In this document: positions 1,915-52,751 of the stretch, one piece after another | Layout: each line of letters starts with the position of its first letter | How positions within the stretch are numbered: the first letter of the stretch is position 1 | Origin: Eubacteriales bacterium | GTDB lineage: Bacteria; Bacillota; Clostridia; Oscillospirales; CAG-382 | Assembly (NCBI GenBank): GCA_045651785.1 | Contig: JAZRTE010000049.1 | Span: 1-52,751, forward strand | Reading direction: 5' to 3' | DNA length: 52,751 nt | The notes under the pieces: model-generated | The model's input: the letters and a program-made list of their open reading frames with translations, nothing else | The model's database searches: none | What the model was told of the DNA's origin: nothing | Program-made: the position numbers and the translations under genes

Positions 1915-4015
1915 CTTTATCTACCTTTTTTGTTATTCCTGAACGCGCCGCGCGAAGCAGAGGCGATTCATCGATATTTATCTTCCCTGCCGACGGAGTC
2001 ATCGTTACAACTACCGCATTTTTGTTGCGGTATTCGAGGGAAATAAGCTTTTGCTCACTTAAAACCCCGAGAATTATTCTGAATTTCGTAAGCGTTACGG
2101 GTATGTCGAATTCGTGCTCAAGAGTTCTTCTTGCCGAGTTCAGCGAAAGCGTCGTGCCCTCGTGTCCCGCCTCGCGGCGAATATAACGAAAAACGTTGCG
2201 GAATTCGGCAAGGTCGGGAATATCCTTTTCAGCACCGTCATAACTGCCGCCCGATGCAAGAATTTTGAAATTGCGCTCGCTTATGCCTATTTCATCCTCG
2301 TCGCCAGATGCGAGTCTCATTTCCTTAACGAAGATCTGCGGCGTGCGCGAGCCCATATATTCGTTCATTTCAACGGTAAAAGCAATATCGCAAACGTCGC
2401 CGTCATAATAAGGGAAGCTTTCAAACGGAGCGCCGAAATTGACCGCATTTAACGAATAGCTTCTGCCGTTTTCGACACCGCTTATACGGAAACGCACGTG
2501 CTTGCCCTGTGAAAGCGGCACAATATCGTTTACGGTCACGTTGCGGATGACCAAAACCGGTTGAGGATTCGAAAGTCCGAACGGCTCAAGGCGCAAGATC
2601 TCGTCGATCGCGCTTTCGCTCAGATCGCGGAAATTAACCGCGCATTCGATCTCAAGAGGCGAAACGTGTTCCTGCTCACCAAAGATAGGAGTCGCGTAAT
2701 CGTTTATCCTTCTACGGAATTCATCTATCTTGTTTCTTTCTATCGAAAGACCTGCAGCAAGCTCGTGTCCGCCGTATTCAAGCAGACAGTCACCGCATGC
2801 GGAAAGCGCATCCATTAGCGAAAAGCCCTTTATGCTTCTGCCGGAGCCCTTTGCCGTATCGCCGTCAAGCGAGAACAGAATGCAGGGACGGGAATATTTT
2901 TCGGCTATTTTCGATGCAACCACACCGATAACACCTTGATGCCAGCCATCGTAGGCGAGTACCAAAAATCTGTCGTCCTTATTGGAATTTTCGATCATTT
3001 CAACAGCTTGCTCGTATATCTTTTGCTCGGTCGTCTGACGAAGCTTGTTGATCTCGCAAAGCTCCTCGGCGATCGTGTCAGCTTCCTGCTCGTCCTTTGT
3101 AAGAAGCAATTCAACCGCACGCGAAGCACAGGCGATCCTGCCTGCCGCGTTTATCCTCGGTGCCAGAACGTAACCGACGGTAGCGGAGGTTATCTTCTTG
3201 ACGCGCTTGCCGTATTTAACGATACCCGCGCGGCGCATAAGCGCAAGAAGTCCCAGATTATCGGTTTCCGCAAGCTTTTTAAGTCCGTCACCGGTAATTC
3301 GGCGGTTTTCGTCAATTATCGGCATAACGTCGGCAACAGTGCCTACTGCTATTATATCTGAATAAAGCTCAAGTATTCTTTCGGTGTTGCCCTCAAGCGC
3401 ACAAAGCAGCTTAAACACAACGCCTACGCCCGCAAGATTAAGGAAGGGATACTTGCTGTCCTCACGGTGCGGGTTGACGACAGCGACTGCTTCGGGCAAG
3501 GTATCGCGGCAGGAATGGTGGTCGGTGATGACCATATCGATTCCGACGCTTTTCGCATACTGTGCCTCGGCAACCGCGGTAACGCCAGTATCAACGGTAA
3601 TGATAAGGTCTACTCTGCCCTTCATCTTTTCAATAACGGGCAGACTGAGTCCATATCCCTCGGATATACGCTCGGGTATGAAATATTCGCATTCCAACCC
3701 GCGCGAGCAGAGGTAAAGATAGAGCAACACCGTGCTTGTTACGCCGTCGACGTCATAATCGCCGTAGATACAAACGCGCTCTTTCTTTTCTATTGCCTCG
3801 TTTATCCTTGCCGCCGCTTTGTCCATATCCGGCAAAAGGAAAGGATCGTAAAGCGGCATGGTATCGCGCTCGAGGAATTTTTTTATTTCTTCTTTTTCGG
3901 TAAGACCGCGATTAACAAGTATCTTTGCGGTAAGCGGAAAAAGATTGCATTCCGATGCTACTTTTCGGCTCAATTCTTCATCCGTTTGGCGAACAAGCCA
4001 TTCACGGTTGTTCAT
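1907..4015 (-). CDS. recJ: Single-stranded-DNA exonuclease RecJ
   Basis: Motifs IYGDYDVDG, ITVDTG, ITDHH, APRINAAGR, GSGRS, GGHELAAG. Confidence 0.97.
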   Translation of the reverse strand: MNNREWLVRQTDEELSRKVASECNLFPLTAKILVNRGLTEKEEIKKFLERDTMPLYDPFLLPDMDKAAARINEAIEKKERVCIYGDYDVDGVTSTVLLYLYLCSRGLECEYFIPERISEGYGLSLPVIEKMKGRVDLIITVDTGVTAVAEAQYAKSVGIDMVITDHHSCRDTLPEAVAVVNPHREDSKYPFLNLAGVGVVFKLLCALEGNTERILELYSDIIAVGTVADVMPIIDENRRITGDGLKKLAETDNLGLLALMRRAGIVKYGKRVKKITSATVGYVLAPRINAAGRIACASRAVELLLTKDEQEADTIAEELCEINKLRQTTEQKIYEQAVEMIENSNKDDRFLVLAYDGWHQGVIGVVASKIAEKYSRPCILFSLDGDTAKGSGRSIKGFSLMDALSACGDCLLEYGGHELAAGLSIERNKIDEFRRRINDYATPIFGEQEHVSPLEIECAVNFRDLSESAIDEILRLEPFGLSNPQPVLVIRNVTVNDIVPLSQGKHVRFRISGVENGRSYSLNAVNFGAPFESFPYYDGDVCDIAFTVEMNEYMGSRTPQIFVKEMRLASGDEDEIGISERNFKILASGGSYDGAEKDIPDLAEFRNVFRYIRREAGHEGTTLSLNSARRTLEHEFDIPVTLTKFRIILGVLSEQKLISLEYRNKNAVVVTMTPSAGKINIDESPLLRAARSGITKKVDKDA

Positions 4016-4049
4016 ATGCTCACCTCTTTACTGTAATTTTAAAATGATT

Positions 4050-5342
4050 TTACTCGACTGTGAAGTTAACCGTATAATCGATATTGTGGATATATACGCC
4101 GATATACTCACCGCCGAGCGAAATTTCCGCACTTGCGGAATAGCTTCCGTCGGGTTCAACCGTGACACGGTTAAAATCAACGGTTGCGCTAAGCAATTTG
4201 CGGTCAATGCTGTCAAACACCTCGCGCTCACCGATAAGCTGGACTACAAGCTTATCGGTTATTTTATAGGTGCTGTCCTCGGGCAGATTTATAACCGTTA
4301 TCTTATCCTTGCCGATCGCATAAGCTCTTACCGCAAGCTTGGGAAGCGTTACCGAAACGTTGATCTTCGTAACACCGCTTTCATTCGTTACGCCTTCGGG
4401 CAGCATCGAGCCGACCGAGAAATCAAACCTTTTACTTCCGTCGATCGTAGTTTCATCAAGCTCAAGCACCAATTCATCGAGCGATGCAAGTGCCGCAGGC
4501 GTGCCCGAAACCGTTATGTTTGACGCGGAAACGTTAACCGTTACGTCCTTGGGATCGAACACCCCGCCGGTAAACACAACGCGAACCGGCAACACCTTTT
4601 GCTTGGTAACGCTTACGGTAACGTAGGCGGTCGTTTCGGAAAGCGTAAGATATCCGTTTTCAATATCGTTGCCGTACTTATCGCGAAGCTTAATTTCGCC
4701 GTAGCCGTAAATATTTTCCTTGATCTCGCGTCCGTCAAGATTGAAATCAACGTACGCCGTATCGATGGTATCGAGTATCGAGGAGGGACCCGAAACGAGC
4801 ACCGACAAGGGATTTGCGGTTGCATTTACGAAGGTGATGCCCTCCGACATAATATATTTGTTGCCTATATCGACCGAAACCGAAAGCAGCTCGTTGCGTT
4901 GAGTAAATTCGTCAACGAAAAGGTTTACCGTGGTGGAGGATTGAGATACCACCTCGATCCCATTAGGAGAATATACGGTAATGCTTATGTTTTGGTCACC
5001 GGCGTTTTCGATTTTGGAAATATCGACCACTGCGCGGAAATCCGAAGCCGACAGAGCGTTAAGCTCGCTTCTTTTACCCTTTGCCACGACGGTTATCGAT
5101 GAAAACTCCTGCCCCTCGGCAAGCGTAAAGCCCTTAAGGTCGCGAAGCTCGTTTTCCCCCTCGATAACAACGGGGATTCCGTTAAAGGTACGTTCGAAAA
5201 GAGTGCCGTCATAGCCTATTGCATAGATCCATACGAAAATCGCACCGATAAGCGCCGCTAAAAGAAAGAATATCTTTTTAACACGCGGAAGCTTTTCGTT
5301 TTTGGGACTGTTAAATTCTTCGGATACGGCTTTATTTTTCAT
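4050..5342 (-). CDS. cdaR: CdaR/YbbR-repeat regulator of diadenylate cyclase
   Basis: Single N-terminal TM followed by repeated beta-rich YbbR-like modules (VVAKGKRSEL, VLVSGPSS, ITVSGTP); overlaps the cdaA stop. Confidence 0.85.
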   Translation of the reverse strand: MKNKAVSEEFNSPKNEKLPRVKKIFFLLAALIGAIFVWIYAIGYDGTLFERTFNGIPVVIEGENELRDLKGFTLAEGQEFSSITVVAKGKRSELNALSASDFRAVVDISKIENAGDQNISITVYSPNGIEVVSQSSTTVNLFVDEFTQRNELLSVSVDIGNKYIMSEGITFVNATANPLSVLVSGPSSILDTIDTAYVDFNLDGREIKENIYGYGEIKLRDKYGNDIENGYLTLSETTAYVTVSVTKQKVLPVRVVFTGGVFDPKDVTVNVSASNITVSGTPAALASLDELVLELDETTIDGSKRFDFSVGSMLPEGVTNESGVTKINVSVTLPKLAVRAYAIGKDKITVINLPEDSTYKITDKLVVQLIGEREVFDSIDRKLLSATVDFNRVTVEPDGSYSASAEISLGGEYIGVYIHNIDYTVNFTVE

Positions 5343-48552: not shown

Positions 48553-49296
48553 TTATGCTTTCGTTTCGATTTTGGGATCGAAAATAGGCATAAGCTGAAG
48601 CTTGAACAGATTTGCATTGTGCTTTCGGTCGATAATTGCCTTTTTGTTTTCGTCATCGATTTCGCCGGTTCTGATGTATTTATCGAGCTCGGCATAGGTA
48701 AAGCCAAGATTGTCCTCATCGCTCTTTCCGCAAAGTCCGTCAATCGGCACCTTATCGACCAATTCCTCGGGAAGATCGAGAGCATACCCGATTTTCTTAA
48801 CCTCGTCAACCGTAAGCTTGGACATCGGACTGAAATCGCCGACGGAATCGCCGTAGCGAGTCGAGTATCCCACCCAATCCTCGGAAAGATTGCAGGTGTT
48901 GCAAACCCTGCCGTTACAGCTTTGAGAAACGGCGTAAAGCGTCGACATTCTAATTCGCGGAGGAAGGTTTTGTTTAGACTGCGCGGTAATTTCAAGCTCG
49001 TTCGGAAGATTTTCGAGAATTGCATCGACGGCGGATTTTATGTTTATTACGTAATGCTTTATCCCCAAATGATTAACGAGCATAAACGCTTTATCGATAT
49101 CGTGCTGTTCGCCTTGGGGCATAAGCACACCGATAACGCGATCCTTGCCCAAAGCTTCAACGCAAAGCGCCGCGGCAACCGAGCTGTCCTTGCCTCCCGA
49201 AATGCCCAATACGGCATTGCAACCCTTTCCGTTAGCCTCGAAAAAATCACGAATCCATTGAACACATTCGTTTTTTACCTTTTCTGCGTTAAACAT
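48553..49296 (-). CDS. nadE: NH3-dependent NAD+ synthetase (no glutaminase domain)
   Basis: LGISGGKDSS, NLPPRIRM, NTCNLSE, GYSTRYGD, DEDNLG; 247 aa. Confidence 0.93.
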   Translation of the reverse strand: MFNAEKVKNECVQWIRDFFEANGKGCNAVLGISGGKDSSVAAALCVEALGKDRVIGVLMPQGEQHDIDKAFMLVNHLGIKHYVINIKSAVDAILENLPNELEITAQSKQNLPPRIRMSTLYAVSQSCNGRVCNTCNLSEDWVGYSTRYGDSVGDFSPMSKLTVDEVKKIGYALDLPEELVDKVPIDGLCGKSDEDNLGFTYAELDKYIRTGEIDDENKKAIIDRKHNANLFKLQLMPIFDPKIETKA

Positions 49297-50765
49297 TAAA
49301 AATCACCTCCGTTCAGACGCTGTCTGATTTCGTTTAAGGTATAGTCCTTTATCATCTTGCCGTCCTTAAATACGGTTTTCAAAAGGTTTCCGTCGGGAAT
49401 ATCTGCAGAAGTGTATCCGTCTTTATACTTCAAAACGCCGTCTTCCTCGTAAACGTAGCAAAGTCCCTTTTGGCTCTTTTTGAATCCGCCGTCTTTAGGA
49501 TTTTTGAATACGGGATAGCATTTGCCGTCGACCTCGGCATAGCAAGCCTTGATGCAGGAGCTGAAGGTGTCACGGGTGAAGGGCTTCAAGATATTATCCT
49601 CCTCAATACAGTGCATCGAGAACGAGCCGACACCCAATGCGACGTTAGAACACGCAAAGCCCGCATTTTTGAGGATTTCGTAAATTTCTTCACAGCGTTG
49701 AACGGTTATGCTGTCGCCGTAAATTGCCTTTACGTGAGGGTCGAGAACCTTATATCCCTTGGAGTTGACCGTTCCGCCGAACTGCTCCCAAAGCTTAAAT
49801 ACGGTTTTGGTAACGACCTCAACGCAATCGCCCGAATCGCCTCTCATAAGCATACAGCCGTTGTGCGCCATAATCTCATCGTGAAGCTGAGGAAGAATAT
49901 TGTCGATAACGTTCCAATAATCATAGCTGTCAAGAACGCAGGAAAAGCTTGTGTTGGGATAAAGCTCGGTCAGCATTTTACGAAGGAAGGTTATTTCGTC
50001 GCCGTCAACCGCGTAATTCGAGCACATTACGAAATGCTCGGTCGAAACCGAACCGAACGCAACAGGTTCCTTCGTGCAGTCGCAATTAAAGATATTTTCC
50101 AAATAAGGAATTGCAGGTACGGTTGCGGTCAGCAGGAAGGATAAGCACCAGCCCGCACCCGCCATAAGCGCCGCATCAACGCACATATCACCGCGAAAAT
50201 CGAATGCGCCTAAAGCTCTTGCGCGGGGAACGTCATCCTCGACCGTTTCGGCATAATACTTATTTACAATATCCCGATAGGTCTTTCCGACCGTTGCGGT
50301 TATTTGCGGATACCACATTTCTGCGGAAATAAGGCTTTCAAGTGCTTGGGGCAGCCACGCGAAATCGTCATGAGTGTTGGTAATACCGAACATCGGAACG
50401 TGAACGGGAACCATCGTTCCCTCGGGAAGCGCAATTATTTCGATGGGAAGGTAACCCAATCTGTGAAGCTTTCTTATCTTTTCGGTTCCGTAAATGCCTT
50501 TTCCGAGAGTCGCATCCAAAACGCGTGTGTATTCGCCGACAACCTCATCCTCGGAAAGTTCGAAAAAGTTTTCATTGAAATAATCGATAAGCCAGGTTTT
50601 GCAAAACATCTGCACACCGAACATAACGACCTTGCCCCAGCGGTTTACACGGCTCATCCGAGGAGTGTAATAAGACATCGATTTTGTCATTTTCGGATTT
50701 ATCATATCGCTGTGAACGGTTTTATAAAAATCGCACAGCAGCATCGGATTTATATTTTTGCTCAT
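49296..50765 (-). CDS. NAMPT/NadV-fold pyridine phosphoribosyltransferase (Namat-like; substrate uncertain)
   Basis: DFYK, FDFRG, STEH, DSYD, RGDSGD, IYGDSIT, GVGS, RDT, KKSQKG; GAGGAG RBS before ATG 50765. Confidence 0.9.
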   Translation of the reverse strand: MSKNINPMLLCDFYKTVHSDMINPKMTKSMSYYTPRMSRVNRWGKVVMFGVQMFCKTWLIDYFNENFFELSEDEVVGEYTRVLDATLGKGIYGTEKIRKLHRLGYLPIEIIALPEGTMVPVHVPMFGITNTHDDFAWLPQALESLISAEMWYPQITATVGKTYRDIVNKYYAETVEDDVPRARALGAFDFRGDMCVDAALMAGAGWCLSFLLTATVPAIPYLENIFNCDCTKEPVAFGSVSTEHFVMCSNYAVDGDEITFLRKMLTELYPNTSFSCVLDSYDYWNVIDNILPQLHDEIMAHNGCMLMRGDSGDCVEVVTKTVFKLWEQFGGTVNSKGYKVLDPHVKAIYGDSITVQRCEEIYEILKNAGFACSNVALGVGSFSMHCIEEDNILKPFTRDTFSSCIKACYAEVDGKCYPVFKNPKDGGFKKSQKGLCYVYEEDGVLKYKDGYTSADIPDGNLLKTVFKDGKMIKDYTLNEIRQRLNGGDF

Positions 50766-50775
50766 AACGTTCTCC

Positions 50776-51573
50776 TCAAAGTGCAATTTTTTCGATTCTT
50801 TCGTGATCTTTTGTAAGTATGCTGTCGGTCGTAAATACCTTTTCAATAAGACCGCTTGTAAGCACCTCACCCTCGAAAACCGTGTTTTCGCAATGAGTTA
50901 TATACAAATAAATTTTACGGGCGCCCAATTCCTTAAGATGCTTCGCCGCGAAATAAAAGGTTCCGCCGCGCGAGCATATATCGTCAACGATAAGGATGTT
51001 TTTGCCCTTGATATTCTCAACGTCACCCGCAACGTCAAGTCCCAAAATGGTTCCGCTCTTCCAATCGCGTTTTTTAATTCCAAACGCATAAGGAAGCGGT
51101 ATCATGCCCGAATAACGCTTGCCCGAACCCTCGTCGGGATAGAACAGCGAGGGTGTTTCGCCCTCGATTTCTTCGATTTTGCATATAGCGTCCTCGATAT
51201 ATTCTTGGGGCTTTTTAACAATAATATTGTCAATCAACGCCTCGCTCACGCTTGAATGGGGGTCAAGCACCGTTACGGCTTTAAAGCCCAAGCCGTTAAT
51301 GACGTTTGCGAAATATTTAAGGGTAAATACGTCCTCACCGCTTTTAACTCGGTCTTGTCTTGCGTTGGGGATATAGGGCATATAAAGACGTATGTTTTCC
51401 TTGCCCTGCGCTTTTAAATGGTTCGCGAGAAATATGATCGCAACCAATTCTCTGTCGTTTTCATAAAACCACGAAAGAGTTATTTCATCCGCTTCGGGCG
51501 CTTTTTGCTTTATAAGCATCGTTCCGTCGGGGAAAGCTCCGAGCGCAACTTCGTTTCCGTTAAGCTTTATCAT
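50776..51573 (-). CDS. Short ribose-phosphate pyrophosphokinase-like protein (Adps-like)
   Basis: FPDG, PYIPNARQDR, DPHS, PDEG..KRY, KKRD, VDDICSRGGTF, TH; only 265 aa. Confidence 0.88.
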   Translation of the reverse strand: MIKLNGNEVALGAFPDGTMLIKQKAPEADEITLSWFYENDRELVAIIFLANHLKAQGKENIRLYMPYIPNARQDRVKSGEDVFTLKYFANVINGLGFKAVTVLDPHSSVSEALIDNIIVKKPQEYIEDAICKIEEIEGETPSLFYPDEGSGKRYSGMIPLPYAFGIKKRDWKSGTILGLDVAGDVENIKGKNILIVDDICSRGGTFYFAAKHLKELGARKIYLYITHCENTVFEGEVLTSGLIEKVFTTDSILTKDHERIEKIAL

Positions 51574-51575
51574 AA

Positions 51576-52106
51576 TTATTCTCCAATCACGTTAACCTGA
51601 CACATCTTCATCGTTGTAAGCGCGGCTTTATGGCTGTCAACCGTCACACCTGCACAGCAGGATGCATCGACGCTTACCTTCGCTTCAAGGAAATTGGCTT
51701 TCAACAAAAGCGCGTTGGACACAACGCAAATATCGGTGCAAAGTCCGATAAGCTCGATTTCAAGCTCGGTCGCGCCGTAATTCGCCTTGATATACTCGGG
51801 TAACTCGGTCGAGCCGAAGGTAGGCTTTTCAATCGACGCATATTCCCTTCCGTCAAGTGCCGCTTGAACCTTTTCGTTAAGCTTCCAACCGTCGGTACCT
51901 TTTATGCAGTGCGGTACGGGAAGATTTTTGCCCTCTTGGGTTTCCATATAGTTTTCAAAGTGGGTATCGTAGGTGACGATAACGTCGCCGTCGAAGCTTT
52001 TGATTTTGTTCACAACGTTATCCACGATAGCAACCGCTTCATTTGAACCGAGCGCGCCGTCGACAAAATCATTTTGTACGTCTACAACAATTAAAAGCTT
52101 TTTCAT
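51576..52106 (-). CDS. pncA: Nicotinamidase (isochorismatase/cysteine hydrolase family)
   Basis: VVDVQNDF (Asp), DTH and PHC metal ligands, EKPTF (Lys), GLCTDICV (Cys); NAD gene context. Confidence 0.88.
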   Translation of the reverse strand: MKKLLIVVDVQNDFVDGALGSNEAVAIVDNVVNKIKSFDGDVIVTYDTHFENYMETQEGKNLPVPHCIKGTDGWKLNEKVQAALDGREYASIEKPTFGSTELPEYIKANYGATELEIELIGLCTDICVVSNALLLKANFLEAKVSVDASCCAGVTVDSHKAALTTMKMCQVNVIGE

Positions 52107-52130
52107 AATATTTTTCTCCTTTGAATAAGT

Positions 52131-52751
52131 CTATATTGGTTTTCTTTTAAATAATCTCGCAGGTCTGTGCCCTGCGCCCTCGGTAAATTCGTCGGTTTCT
52201 TCAACAAGACTTGCCGTTTTTCTTCGGAAGTTTGCCGTTAACAGCGTATCATTCAACAAGGTTTCCTGCACTTTTTGCAATGCGGCAAGCGTGAACTTTT
52301 CGGGCAAGAAATCGAAGGTTATATCAAACCGTTCGGCTTCGCTTCGCATAACCAAAAGCGCGGTGGCGATAATTTTTGAATGGTCAAAGGCAAGGCCGGT
52401 GTCCTTTTGTATCTCAAATTGGCTTTTACCGAATTTACGCTCGGTTTCTAAAAGCTCAACCCGAATTTTTTCGTCGCCGTTGATAAAATCTATTGAAAAT
52501 CGGTTTTCGCCCAAGCTCTTGAAATCCACCTCAAACCATTGCGCCATTATTGCATCTCCGCCGCCCGATATTTTAACGGTTTCGGCATTGACTACCGATG
52601 CAAAGGCGTTTGAAACGATCCTTCCGCGCGGATCGCGGTCGGGCTTGCTGAACACACCGACAGGCAATAAAGAAATAGGTTCAAGATTCGTTTCTTCCTT
52701 GATTTCTCGCAAAGCGCATTCTTCAACGGTTTCATCGGCTTTCAAAAAACC
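52131..52751 (-). CDS. nrtR: NrtR-family regulator (Nudix + winged-helix); 5' end outside the window
   Basis: Nudix box GFLKADETVEECALREIKEETNL, PDRDPRGR, LAFDH, FLPEKFTL, NFRRK, GHRPARLF. Confidence 0.92.
   Translation of the reverse strand, partial: GFLKADETVEECALREIKEETNLEPISLLPVGVFSKPDRDPRGRIVSNAFASVVNAETVKISGGGDAIMAQWFEVDFKSLGENRFSIDFINGDEKIRVELLETERKFGKSQFEIQKDTGLAFDHSKIIATALLVMRSEAERFDITFDFLPEKFTLAALQKVQETLLNDTLLTANFRRKTASLVEETDEFTEGAGHRPARLFKRKPI

Follow-up and report, generated by a model that had tools for sequence, protein, structure and literature searches.

Why should a single bacterial operon combine a gene resembling nicotinamide phosphoribosyltransferase (NAMPT) with genes for a nicotinamidase (PncA) and an NAD+ synthetase (NadE)? 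This question is raised by one end of contig JAZRTE010000049.1 from an Eubacteriales bacterium (assembly GCA_045651785.1), where nrtR, pncA-like, Prs-like, NAMPT-like and nadE genes follow each other head to tail on the minus strand. The stretch analysed here (the window) is this entire contig of 52,751 nucleotides (nt; G000:C49), taken from a genome of 1.83 Mb in 113 contigs that is estimated to be 85.9% complete. The original prediction read the five genes as a host-encoded variant of the phage NAD+-reconstitution pathway NARP1, in which Adps makes ADP-ribose pyrophosphate (ADPR-PP) from ADP-ribose (ADPR) and ATP, and Namat joins nicotinamide to it. We found that the two core proteins fall within the Adps and Namat clades, that the nicotinamide pocket of the Namat-like protein differs from that of the assayed phage enzyme at two positions, and that this altered pocket occurs together with PncA and NadE in bacteria as well as in phages. 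Given these observations, we consider it somewhat probable that the operon encodes a self-contained, deamidated NARP1, in which ADPR and nicotinamide would be rebuilt into NAD+ via nicotinate and nicotinic acid adenine dinucleotide (NaAD). The features of the operon are as follows.

52131..52751, minus strand: nrtR, its 5' end lost at the contig end, with 206 of about 279 codons visible; PF21906 (NrtR_WHD) 61 bits and PF00293 (NUDIX) 36.9 bits
51576..52106, minus strand: pncA-like nicotinamidase gene, 176 amino acids; PF00857 (Isochorismatase) 77.9 bits
50776..51573, minus strand: Adps-like gene, Prs fold, 265 amino acids; Pribosyltran/Pribosyl_synth, and phrog_619 at 234 bits
49296..50765, minus strand: Namat-like gene, 489 amino acids; NAPRTase and NAMPT_N; the ATG is the start common to homologues
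48553..49296, minus strand: nadE, NH3-dependent NAD+ synthetase, 247 amino acids; PF02540 174.2 bits and TIGR00552 165.5 bits
48502..48532, minus strand: hairpin resembling an intrinsic terminator that closes the operon; a 13-pair stem with six GC pairs, then a T-run

The tight packing and single terminator described in the original prediction are borne out: the open reading frame (ORF) listing gives gaps of 24, 2 and 10 nt from nrtR to the NAMPT-like gene, followed by a TAATG stop/start overlap between the NAMPT-like gene and nadE, with ribosome-binding sites (GAGGAG and GGAGGTG) ahead of these last two genes, and the hairpin begins 20 nt past the nadE stop. Pfam and NCBIfam profiles uphold its gene identifications, and the visible part indeed contains no NadD, NadM or NadR adenylyltransferase. 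An adenylyltransferase just upstream of nrtR, which the prediction had named as a finding that would count against it, is also absent from the nearest relative (locus L022, 99% identical). There, a complete nrtR of 279 amino acids is the operon's first gene and lies behind a 745-nt intergenic spacer and an oppositely oriented gene of 740 amino acids, so that no adenylyltransferase is hidden upstream. The arrangement is non-random: pncA and the Prs-like gene are found in 64/64, and nadE in 58/64, of the related loci with adequate flank.

The two core enzymes and the pyridine pocket

The Prs-like protein scores 107.8 bits against the Prs family TIGR01251, under the cut-off of 113, and 234 bits against the phage family phrog_619. 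No solved Prs structure gives it a score above 74 bits, and it shares 42.9% identity with SPbetaL1 Adps, an assayed enzyme whose production of ADPR-PP has been demonstrated (bioRxiv 10.1101/2024.02.11.579819; PMC13586617). In a quick IQ-TREE phylogeny of 36 rows, which has Shimodaira-Hasegawa approximate likelihood-ratio test (SH-aLRT) support only and several long branches, eight housekeeping Prs from the window genome and five cultured carriers split from 28 Adps rows at a support of 100, and the window protein is placed together with SPbetaL1 Adps in a set supported at 98. The residues named for ICP1 Adps, namely the catalytic Lys185, the acceptor-site R87, H121, D161, D212 and D213, and the adenine contact F18 (PMC13586617), are conserved in the window protein, as are I214 and C215; across the family, Lys185 and the five acceptor-site residues are kept in 76/76 members, and position 18 is F or Y. 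F92 is replaced by Lys in the window, at a position that also varies among the Adps partners of Asp-type Namats (see below), including the assayed SPbetaL1 enzyme, and the PP loop reads DDICSRGGTF, resembling DDLSSFGGTF of SPbetaL1. A Namat homologue adjoins the Adps gene, with a gap of 10 nt in the window, in 64/64 genome loci and 40/40 viral loci with adequate flank. As a member of the Adps clade, apart from canonical Prs, the protein is what the original prediction had called Adps-like, and it is predicted to convert ADPR and ATP to ADPR-PP. Canonical Prs is encoded separately: the genome survey outlined with that prediction finds a copy above the TIGR01251 cut-off in the window genome and in 5/5 cultured carriers.

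The NAMPT-like protein groups with Namat and apart from NadV in sequence, fold and tree, in agreement with the identity first proposed for it. Among solved structures, SPbetaL1 Namat (9w5x) scores 366 bits, H. ducreyi NadV 305 bits and human NAMPT about 150 bits, and a fold search with an AlphaFold model (predicted local distance difference test, pLDDT, 95.4) returns Namat as the best match at a template-modelling (TM) score of 0.92, with human NAMPT at 0.86. The catalytic core (F189, R192, R306, D308, G360, D361, T398, R399, D400, D13 and Y15; SPbetaL1 numbering, used throughout for Namat) shows little or no variation, the ribose-phosphate contacts do not vary in the Namat-like alignment, and two features of NAMPT and NadV, a GGGLLQ-type loop and Asp219, are absent from the window protein. 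The protein also passes the NCBIfam model NF006629 (nicotinate phosphoribosyltransferase) with 412.4 bits (cut-off, 405); this family name serves as a label and not as a test.

The pyridine pocket distinguishes the window protein from the assayed Namat. Asp215 and Ala242 are named as nicotinamide contacts in SPbetaL1 Namat, where D215A lowers NAD+ formation 8.1-fold (PMC12774641); in the window protein, Asp215 is replaced by Ala and Ala242 by Ser. The equivalent residue of human NAMPT, Asp219, sets substrate specificity (PMC7096376), and in a review table D219S is entered as a switch of substrate affinity and D219A as a loss of activity (PMC4919578). In 78 aligned members, Asp215 is always paired with Ala242 (34 sequences; Asp-type) and Ala or Ser at 215 always with Ser242 (44 sequences; Ala/Ser-type), with no exception, and these are two of the four alignment columns that separate the groups perfectly. 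In a tree of 70 rows rooted on two phage NadV sequences (quick search, LG+G4, 510 columns including 215 and 242), the 29 Ala/Ser215 rows form a single clade with a support of 99, nested among Asp-type Namats, and within this clade residue 215 is Ala in 23/29 and Ser in 6/29. The Ala/Ser215 and Ser242 combination is present in 80/80 loci of the genome scan and 46/47 loci of the viral scan described below, and in 126/126 loci of the subclade from these two scans. An 'HDF' Asp, taken from a pairwise alignment as the specificity residue, was dropped, as the multiple alignment in SPbetaL1 numbering puts Asp215 in a GTDT motif.

Two side observations concern the wider Namat family, for which matches run to roughly 2000 phage records and 3400 representative proteins. 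Many of its representatives (among P0122-P0270) are 550-1100 amino acids long, and the query matches them in two or three stretches that are often broken near residue 320, which suggests inteins or other large insertions. In one phage contig, a LAGLIDADG endonuclease ORF stands directly after the Namat-like gene (L139:7568-8509).

Gene linkage and distribution in bacteria and phages

A scan of species-representative genomes with the Namat-like protein as query gave 80 loci, 72-99% identical, in Oscillospiraceae, Acutalibacteraceae, Ruminococcus (including R. albus 8, KH2T6 and AR67), Lachnospiraceae, Konateibacter and others. The five-gene cluster, whose conservation the original prediction had proposed to survey, is kept: PncA and Adps occur in all 64 loci with adequate flank, NadE in 58 of them and NrtR in 54. 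A scan of IMG/VR gave 47 viral loci, 40 of them with adequate flank, with PncA in 39, Adps in 40, NadE in 40, a Macro-domain gene in nine and NrtR in one (a weak match); their flanks carry phage-only PHROG families at 729-881 bits, an RNA ligase and a reverse transcriptase. The description of the system as host-encoded therefore holds in that the operon is chromosomal in bacteria, but the pncA-adps-namat-nadE set is also found in large phage genomes. The complete gut phage Phass-1 encodes a nicotinamidase, Adps, a Namat of the Ala215/Ser242 type in which the clamp motif (see below) is intact, a small ORF and NadE, and the deep branches of the clade (Phass-1, L103, L165, L166 and L188) also carry PncA, Adps and NadE. 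Asp215/Ala242 loci of the Adps-Namat type are different: 17 were obtained from a sample that mixed 17 further viral loci with reference phages, and none of them has PncA or NadE within the fetched flanks, whereas the four Ala/Ser loci of the same sample (L103, L105, L165 and L166) all have both. Perhaps eight related groups make up the Asp-type loci, and the locus counts describe one ancient event that was faithfully maintained, not many independent ones. A viral scan with the basal member P0256 as query found no relative.

The distribution of the gene among bacteria is patchy. The Namat-like gene was found in 0/24 same-genus and 0/16 same-order genomes searched, and in 4/399 other genomes sampled across the class, which belong to four different families and reach 93% identity. 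All four are of the Ala/Ser type; three have PncA, Adps and NadE, and the remaining one is truncated upstream. Among Lachnospiraceae, identity rises to 91%. So patchy an occurrence, combined with the copies in phages, points to horizontal transfer. In the window, the genes downstream of the operon (a DUF4886 lipoprotein, a ClC channel, a transglutaminase-like protein and rubrerythrin) are ordinary chromosomal genes. One gut metatranscriptome run contained 9% of the sampled words, and its contigs, 90-95% alike and thus from a relative and not the window strain, overlap each of the five genes in part and run across three of the gene junctions, a weak hint that the operon is expressed in that relative, with DNA carry-over also possible.

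The companion genes carry the features of their families. The nrtR product combines a Nudix-like domain with a C-terminal NrtR winged helix and lies beside NAD genes; relatives of NrtR are released from DNA by ADPR (PMC2330246), and the window protein is predicted to be an ADPR-responsive Nudix-type repressor. The best solved relative of the window PncA is M. tuberculosis PncA (3pl1); in the alignment of the two, the catalytic Asp and Cys match, as do the Asp/His/His metal ligands (VDVQNDF, D-x-H, PHC and TD-x-CV are kept), and the triad Lys aligns only with 5zn8. A nicotinamidase converting nicotinamide to nicotinate is therefore predicted, and the homologue in Phass-1 carries the same annotation. 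The nadE product exceeds the TIGR00552 cut-off (165.5 against 63.65 bits), and NaAD is its predicted substrate. Beyond the window, whose contig ends within nrtR, a 21-nt AT-rich palindrome (ATATTATCAATGTGATATTAT) lies about 50 nt upstream of the nrtR start in L022 (nrtR at 3796-4635), and similar palindromes occur at a similar distance in L028, L031 and L032; the one in L022 is a candidate NrtR operator.

The phage modules hold several further genes. A small protein of about 136 amino acids (DFDDT...GNGE...DDRGG), with no Pfam match, is encoded between the Namat-like gene and nadE in 13/40 viral modules (for example L123:7482-7892, L114, L127, L128, L147 and L188:7424-7879), and forms the C-terminal part of 251-residue proteins in L115, L119, L124 and L142. 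It resembles a haloacid dehalogenase (HAD)-type phosphatase and may supply the pathway as a phosphatase of a second kind. In L188, which has Ser215/Ser242, a weak radical-SAM-like ORF (4518-5165; PF04055 21.9 bits, under the cut-off) lies between pncA and the Adps-like gene. The module of Phass-1 (L105, OQ749652.1) stands beside a large block of tRNA genes, one of them for a suppressor tRNA (CTA); Phass-1 is a 'code 15' clade phage, and its genes were read with TAG as a sense codon.

Routes to NAD+ that the operon could serve

The scheme that we prefer has four steps: PncA would convert nicotinamide to nicotinate; the Adps-like enzyme would make ADPR-PP from ADPR and ATP; the Namat-like enzyme, whose pocket lacks the amide-binding Asp215 and has gained Ser242, would join nicotinate to ADPR-PP to give NaAD without an adenylyltransferase; and NadE would amidate NaAD to NAD+. 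In bacteria, NrtR would repress the operon until ADPR builds up; in phages, the four enzymes would act without NrtR, countering NAD+-depleting defence. We prefer this scheme because it is the simplest one that uses every conserved part. The broader proposition seems to us evenly balanced: that this is a fourth NAD+ reconstitution route, built on a new nicotinate ADP-ribosyltransferase that bypasses NadD, and that the module has been exchanged between large gut and rumen phages and Clostridia and domesticated under NrtR.

ADPR as the input of the module is suggested by its neighbours. Besides NrtR, these include the Macro genes of the viral modules, which pass the PF01661 cut-off, the criterion also used in the preprint (10.64898/2026.01.28.702374) that describes a Macro-domain ADPR-1''-phosphate phosphatase feeding Adps as a NARP1 companion. 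A third such neighbour is an NADAR-NadE fusion with NADAR N-terminal (L110:7470-8645; PF08719 95.7 bits, PF02540 178.4 bits), found in one module on a 152-kb phage contig. The window genome's own NadD, used as a query, matches nothing in the 80 genome loci. PF01467 has no match in three phage sequences, namely the complete Phass-1 genome, a 152-kb contig that is 99% complete and one further contig, and only distant matches, tens of kilobases from the module, in two others.

The adenine clamp of the window protein is remodelled. The clamp residues R40 and F392 are retained, and the stacking residue of the clamp loop, Arg40, is Arg in the window and in 76/77 family members. Several observations, on the clamp and elsewhere, weigh against the scheme. 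The clamp motif GSXphiXphiXphiTRD is not matched in the window, which reads GSFSMHC, then an insertion (IEEDNILKP), then FTRD; Tyr396 is Cys, and the nine-residue insertion, modelled by AlphaFold as a beta-hairpin, precedes an invariant Phe-Thr-Arg-Asp. With the motif broken in the window subfamily, adenine recognition and use of ADPR-PP can only be inferred, and the same is true of the core-enzyme substrates in general, of NaAD as the product and of regulation by ADPR. SPbetaL1 D215A retains about 1/8 of its activity with nicotinamide (PMC12774641). The pocket change arose once, in one clade, so its link with PncA and NadE amounts to a single evolutionary event. Six genome loci, those of the R. 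albus group, lack an adjacent nadE, and the operon nadE is the only NadE found in the window genome, where an own-genome search at 85.9% completeness gave no second full copy. Moreover, a second, PncB-type PF04095 gene occurs in 5/5 cultured carriers searched, NadC occurs in 4/5, and the window genome has a nadD-yqeK-rsfS cluster (the PF01467 members of this genome are NadD-like, RibF-like and two others), so that a conventional nicotinate route exists beside the module. The puzzle from which the original prediction started, that a true NAMPT would make NadE unnecessary, is for the same reason weaker than it was stated to be. On the other side, basal clade members combine an intact motif with Ala215/Ser242 (GAYTYQYVTRD in Phass-1 and GSYTYQYNTRD in P0142; also P0148 and P0256), and Phass-1, P0185, P0142 and P0256 are without the insertion.

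Clamp insertions of other lengths also occur: 26 residues in the R. albus group (L059, L054, L060, L063, L067 and L068), the same loci that lack an adjacent nadE, and 42 residues in the viral locus L135. With regard to precursor supply, no PncB, NadC or NadA was found in the window genome (85.9% complete), whose one PF04095 member is the Namat-like gene. The argument that nicotinate must be used for lack of PncB holds for the window genome only and fails in the five cultured carriers; it is taken as weak support. PF04095 members are absent from 15/24 same-genus genomes, some of them 95-98% complete, and the genus seems to have an unusually reduced and variable supply of NAD precursors.

Three alternatives to the four-step scheme have to be weighed. 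In the conventional Preiss-Handler route, which we regard as unlikely, the Namat-like protein would be a nicotinate phosphoribosyltransferase acting on phosphoribosyl pyrophosphate (PRPP), possibly supplied by the Prs-like enzyme, to give nicotinic acid mononucleotide (NaMN), followed by NadD, encoded elsewhere or by the phage host, and NadE. The pocket change suits nicotinate use equally well here, and Namat is reported to keep PRPP-dependent synthesis of nicotinamide mononucleotide (NMN) in vitro (PMC12774641), but the Prs-like partner sits in the Adps clade near an assayed Adps, and every examined carrier has its own housekeeping Prs. A nadD elsewhere, on which the original prediction had based this alternative, is indeed present in the window genome; phage modules, however, carry NadE and PncA without an adenylyltransferase, as in a complete and a 99%-complete genome, and five cultured carriers already own a PncB-type enzyme for the phosphoribosyl step. 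Although the remodelled clamp of the window subfamily and, as far as a label can, the NF006629 match favour PRPP, the ADPR-PP clamp is intact in basal members, and the Macro, NADAR and NrtR neighbours indicate ADPR as the input.

The other two alternatives retain ADPR-PP as the substrate and differ in the pyridine. An ordinary nicotinamide-using NARP1 that merely shares an NrtR-controlled operon or a phage block with PncA and NadE, the enzymes that open and close deamidated salvage, its pocket changes being neutral or tuning affinity, appears to us decidedly improbable. PncA would then destroy the enzyme's own substrate, and PncA and NadE, absent from all 17 Asp-type Adps-Namat loci, accompany nearly all Ala/Ser-type loci; the four genes also travel together in phages with neither PncB nor NadD in the module. 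These points have to be set against the common mixing of NAD genes in NrtR regulons (PMC2330246), the PncB-type genes of the carriers, which could consume the product of PncA, and the bacterial NARP1 of P. foliorum, which makes NAD+ from ADPR and nicotinamide (PMC12774641). Mutants give support to both sides, SPbetaL1 D215A being reduced and not dead (PMC12774641) and human NAMPT D219A being listed as an activity loss (PMC4919578). The least probable alternative, to which we give very little weight, is an enzyme of dual specificity that would use nicotinamide and nicotinate alike with ADPR-PP, so that PncA and NadE serve the nicotinate share only. The human D219S enzyme is said to accept both pyridines. 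Ser215 in 6/29 clade members mirrors this change, listed as an affinity switch (PMC4919578), but most members (23/29) have Ala, and with PncA co-expressed little nicotinamide should remain.

Relation to known NAD+ systems

Much of the setting has already been described: chromosomal bacterial NARP1 (PMC12774641), nrtR-prs-nadV operons (PMC2330246) and NARP1 with a Macro phosphatase (10.64898/2026.01.28.702374). Of the host-encoded, nicotinate-using variant set out in the original prediction, what is new is only the use of nicotinate. A nicotinate-type NARP1 was not found in full-text searches of the literature, where supplements listing NARP1-associated genes could hold the association, and the NARP1 preprint, the aRES preprint and a 2022 survey of viral NAD-ADPr systems yielded none when searched by term. 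If the four-step scheme is correct, NAD+ would be rebuilt from its cleavage products via NaAD, without a mononucleotide intermediate and without an adenylyltransferase, a reaction missing from current NAD pathway maps and a new branch of the known phage NAD+-reconstitution pathway. Ala/Ser215 with Ser242 would then serve as a signature from which to predict the pyridine specificity of hundreds of proteins annotated 'nicotinate/nicotinamide phosphoribosyltransferase'. One mobile module would be common to phage counter-defence and bacterial housekeeping, which would bear on the role of chromosomal NARP1, a question raised in PMC12774641. It would also be relevant to the flux of niacin and NAD through communities of the gut and rumen, in which Ruminococcus albus and Konateibacter massiliensis are cultured carriers.

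Phage NARP1 (SPbetaL1, ICP1 and Bas63) has the same Adps and Namat core in the same order with the catalytic residues kept, and the window proteins, 42.9% (Adps) and about 42% (Namat) identical to those of SPbetaL1, nest in both clades. The phage system differs in having Asp215/Ala242 where the window has Ala/Ser, in lacking the nine-residue clamp insertion and Tyr396Cys, and in that PncA and NadE are nearly always attached in window-type modules, for which the proposed product is NaAD and not NAD+. The assayed chromosomal NARP1 of Paenibacillus foliorum is likewise host-encoded, with Adps and Namat outside a prophage (PMC12774641). Its Namat is 71.9% identical to that of SPbetaL1 and uses nicotinamide, and no PncA, NadE or NrtR is described for the operon in the main account of that work (PMC12774641). 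NARP1-AP consists of Adps, the Macro phosphatase Adpp and Namat (10.64898/2026.01.28.702374); a Macro gene is likewise present in 9/40 Ala/Ser viral modules, which further add PncA and NadE, whereas the window operon is without one. Canonical NAMPT and NadV enzymes (human NAMPT, H. ducreyi NadV 9ke8 and phage NARP2 NadV) share the fold (TM 0.86-0.90) and the phosphoribosyl-transfer core, but NadV-type enzymes have GGGLLQ..RD where Namat has GS(F/Y)...TRD, and they contain Asp215 and Ala242.

Two types of NrtR-controlled operon come close to the window in gene content. The nrtR-prs-nadV operons of Shewanella, Acinetobacter, Chromobacterium and Cytophaga likewise combine an ADPR-responsive NrtR with a second Prs paralogue and a NadV-like gene; as reported in PMC2330246, they hold no pncA or nadE, unlike the window operon, a comparison made by gene content and not by pocket type. 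The nrtR-pncA-pncB-nadD-nadE operon of C. acetobutylicum (PMC2330246) begins with nrtR and pncA and ends with nadE, as the window operon does. The place of adps-namat is occupied there by pncB-nadD, which leads from nicotinate via NaMN to NaAD, and this replacement of one pair by the other is what would be expected if both deliver NaAD.

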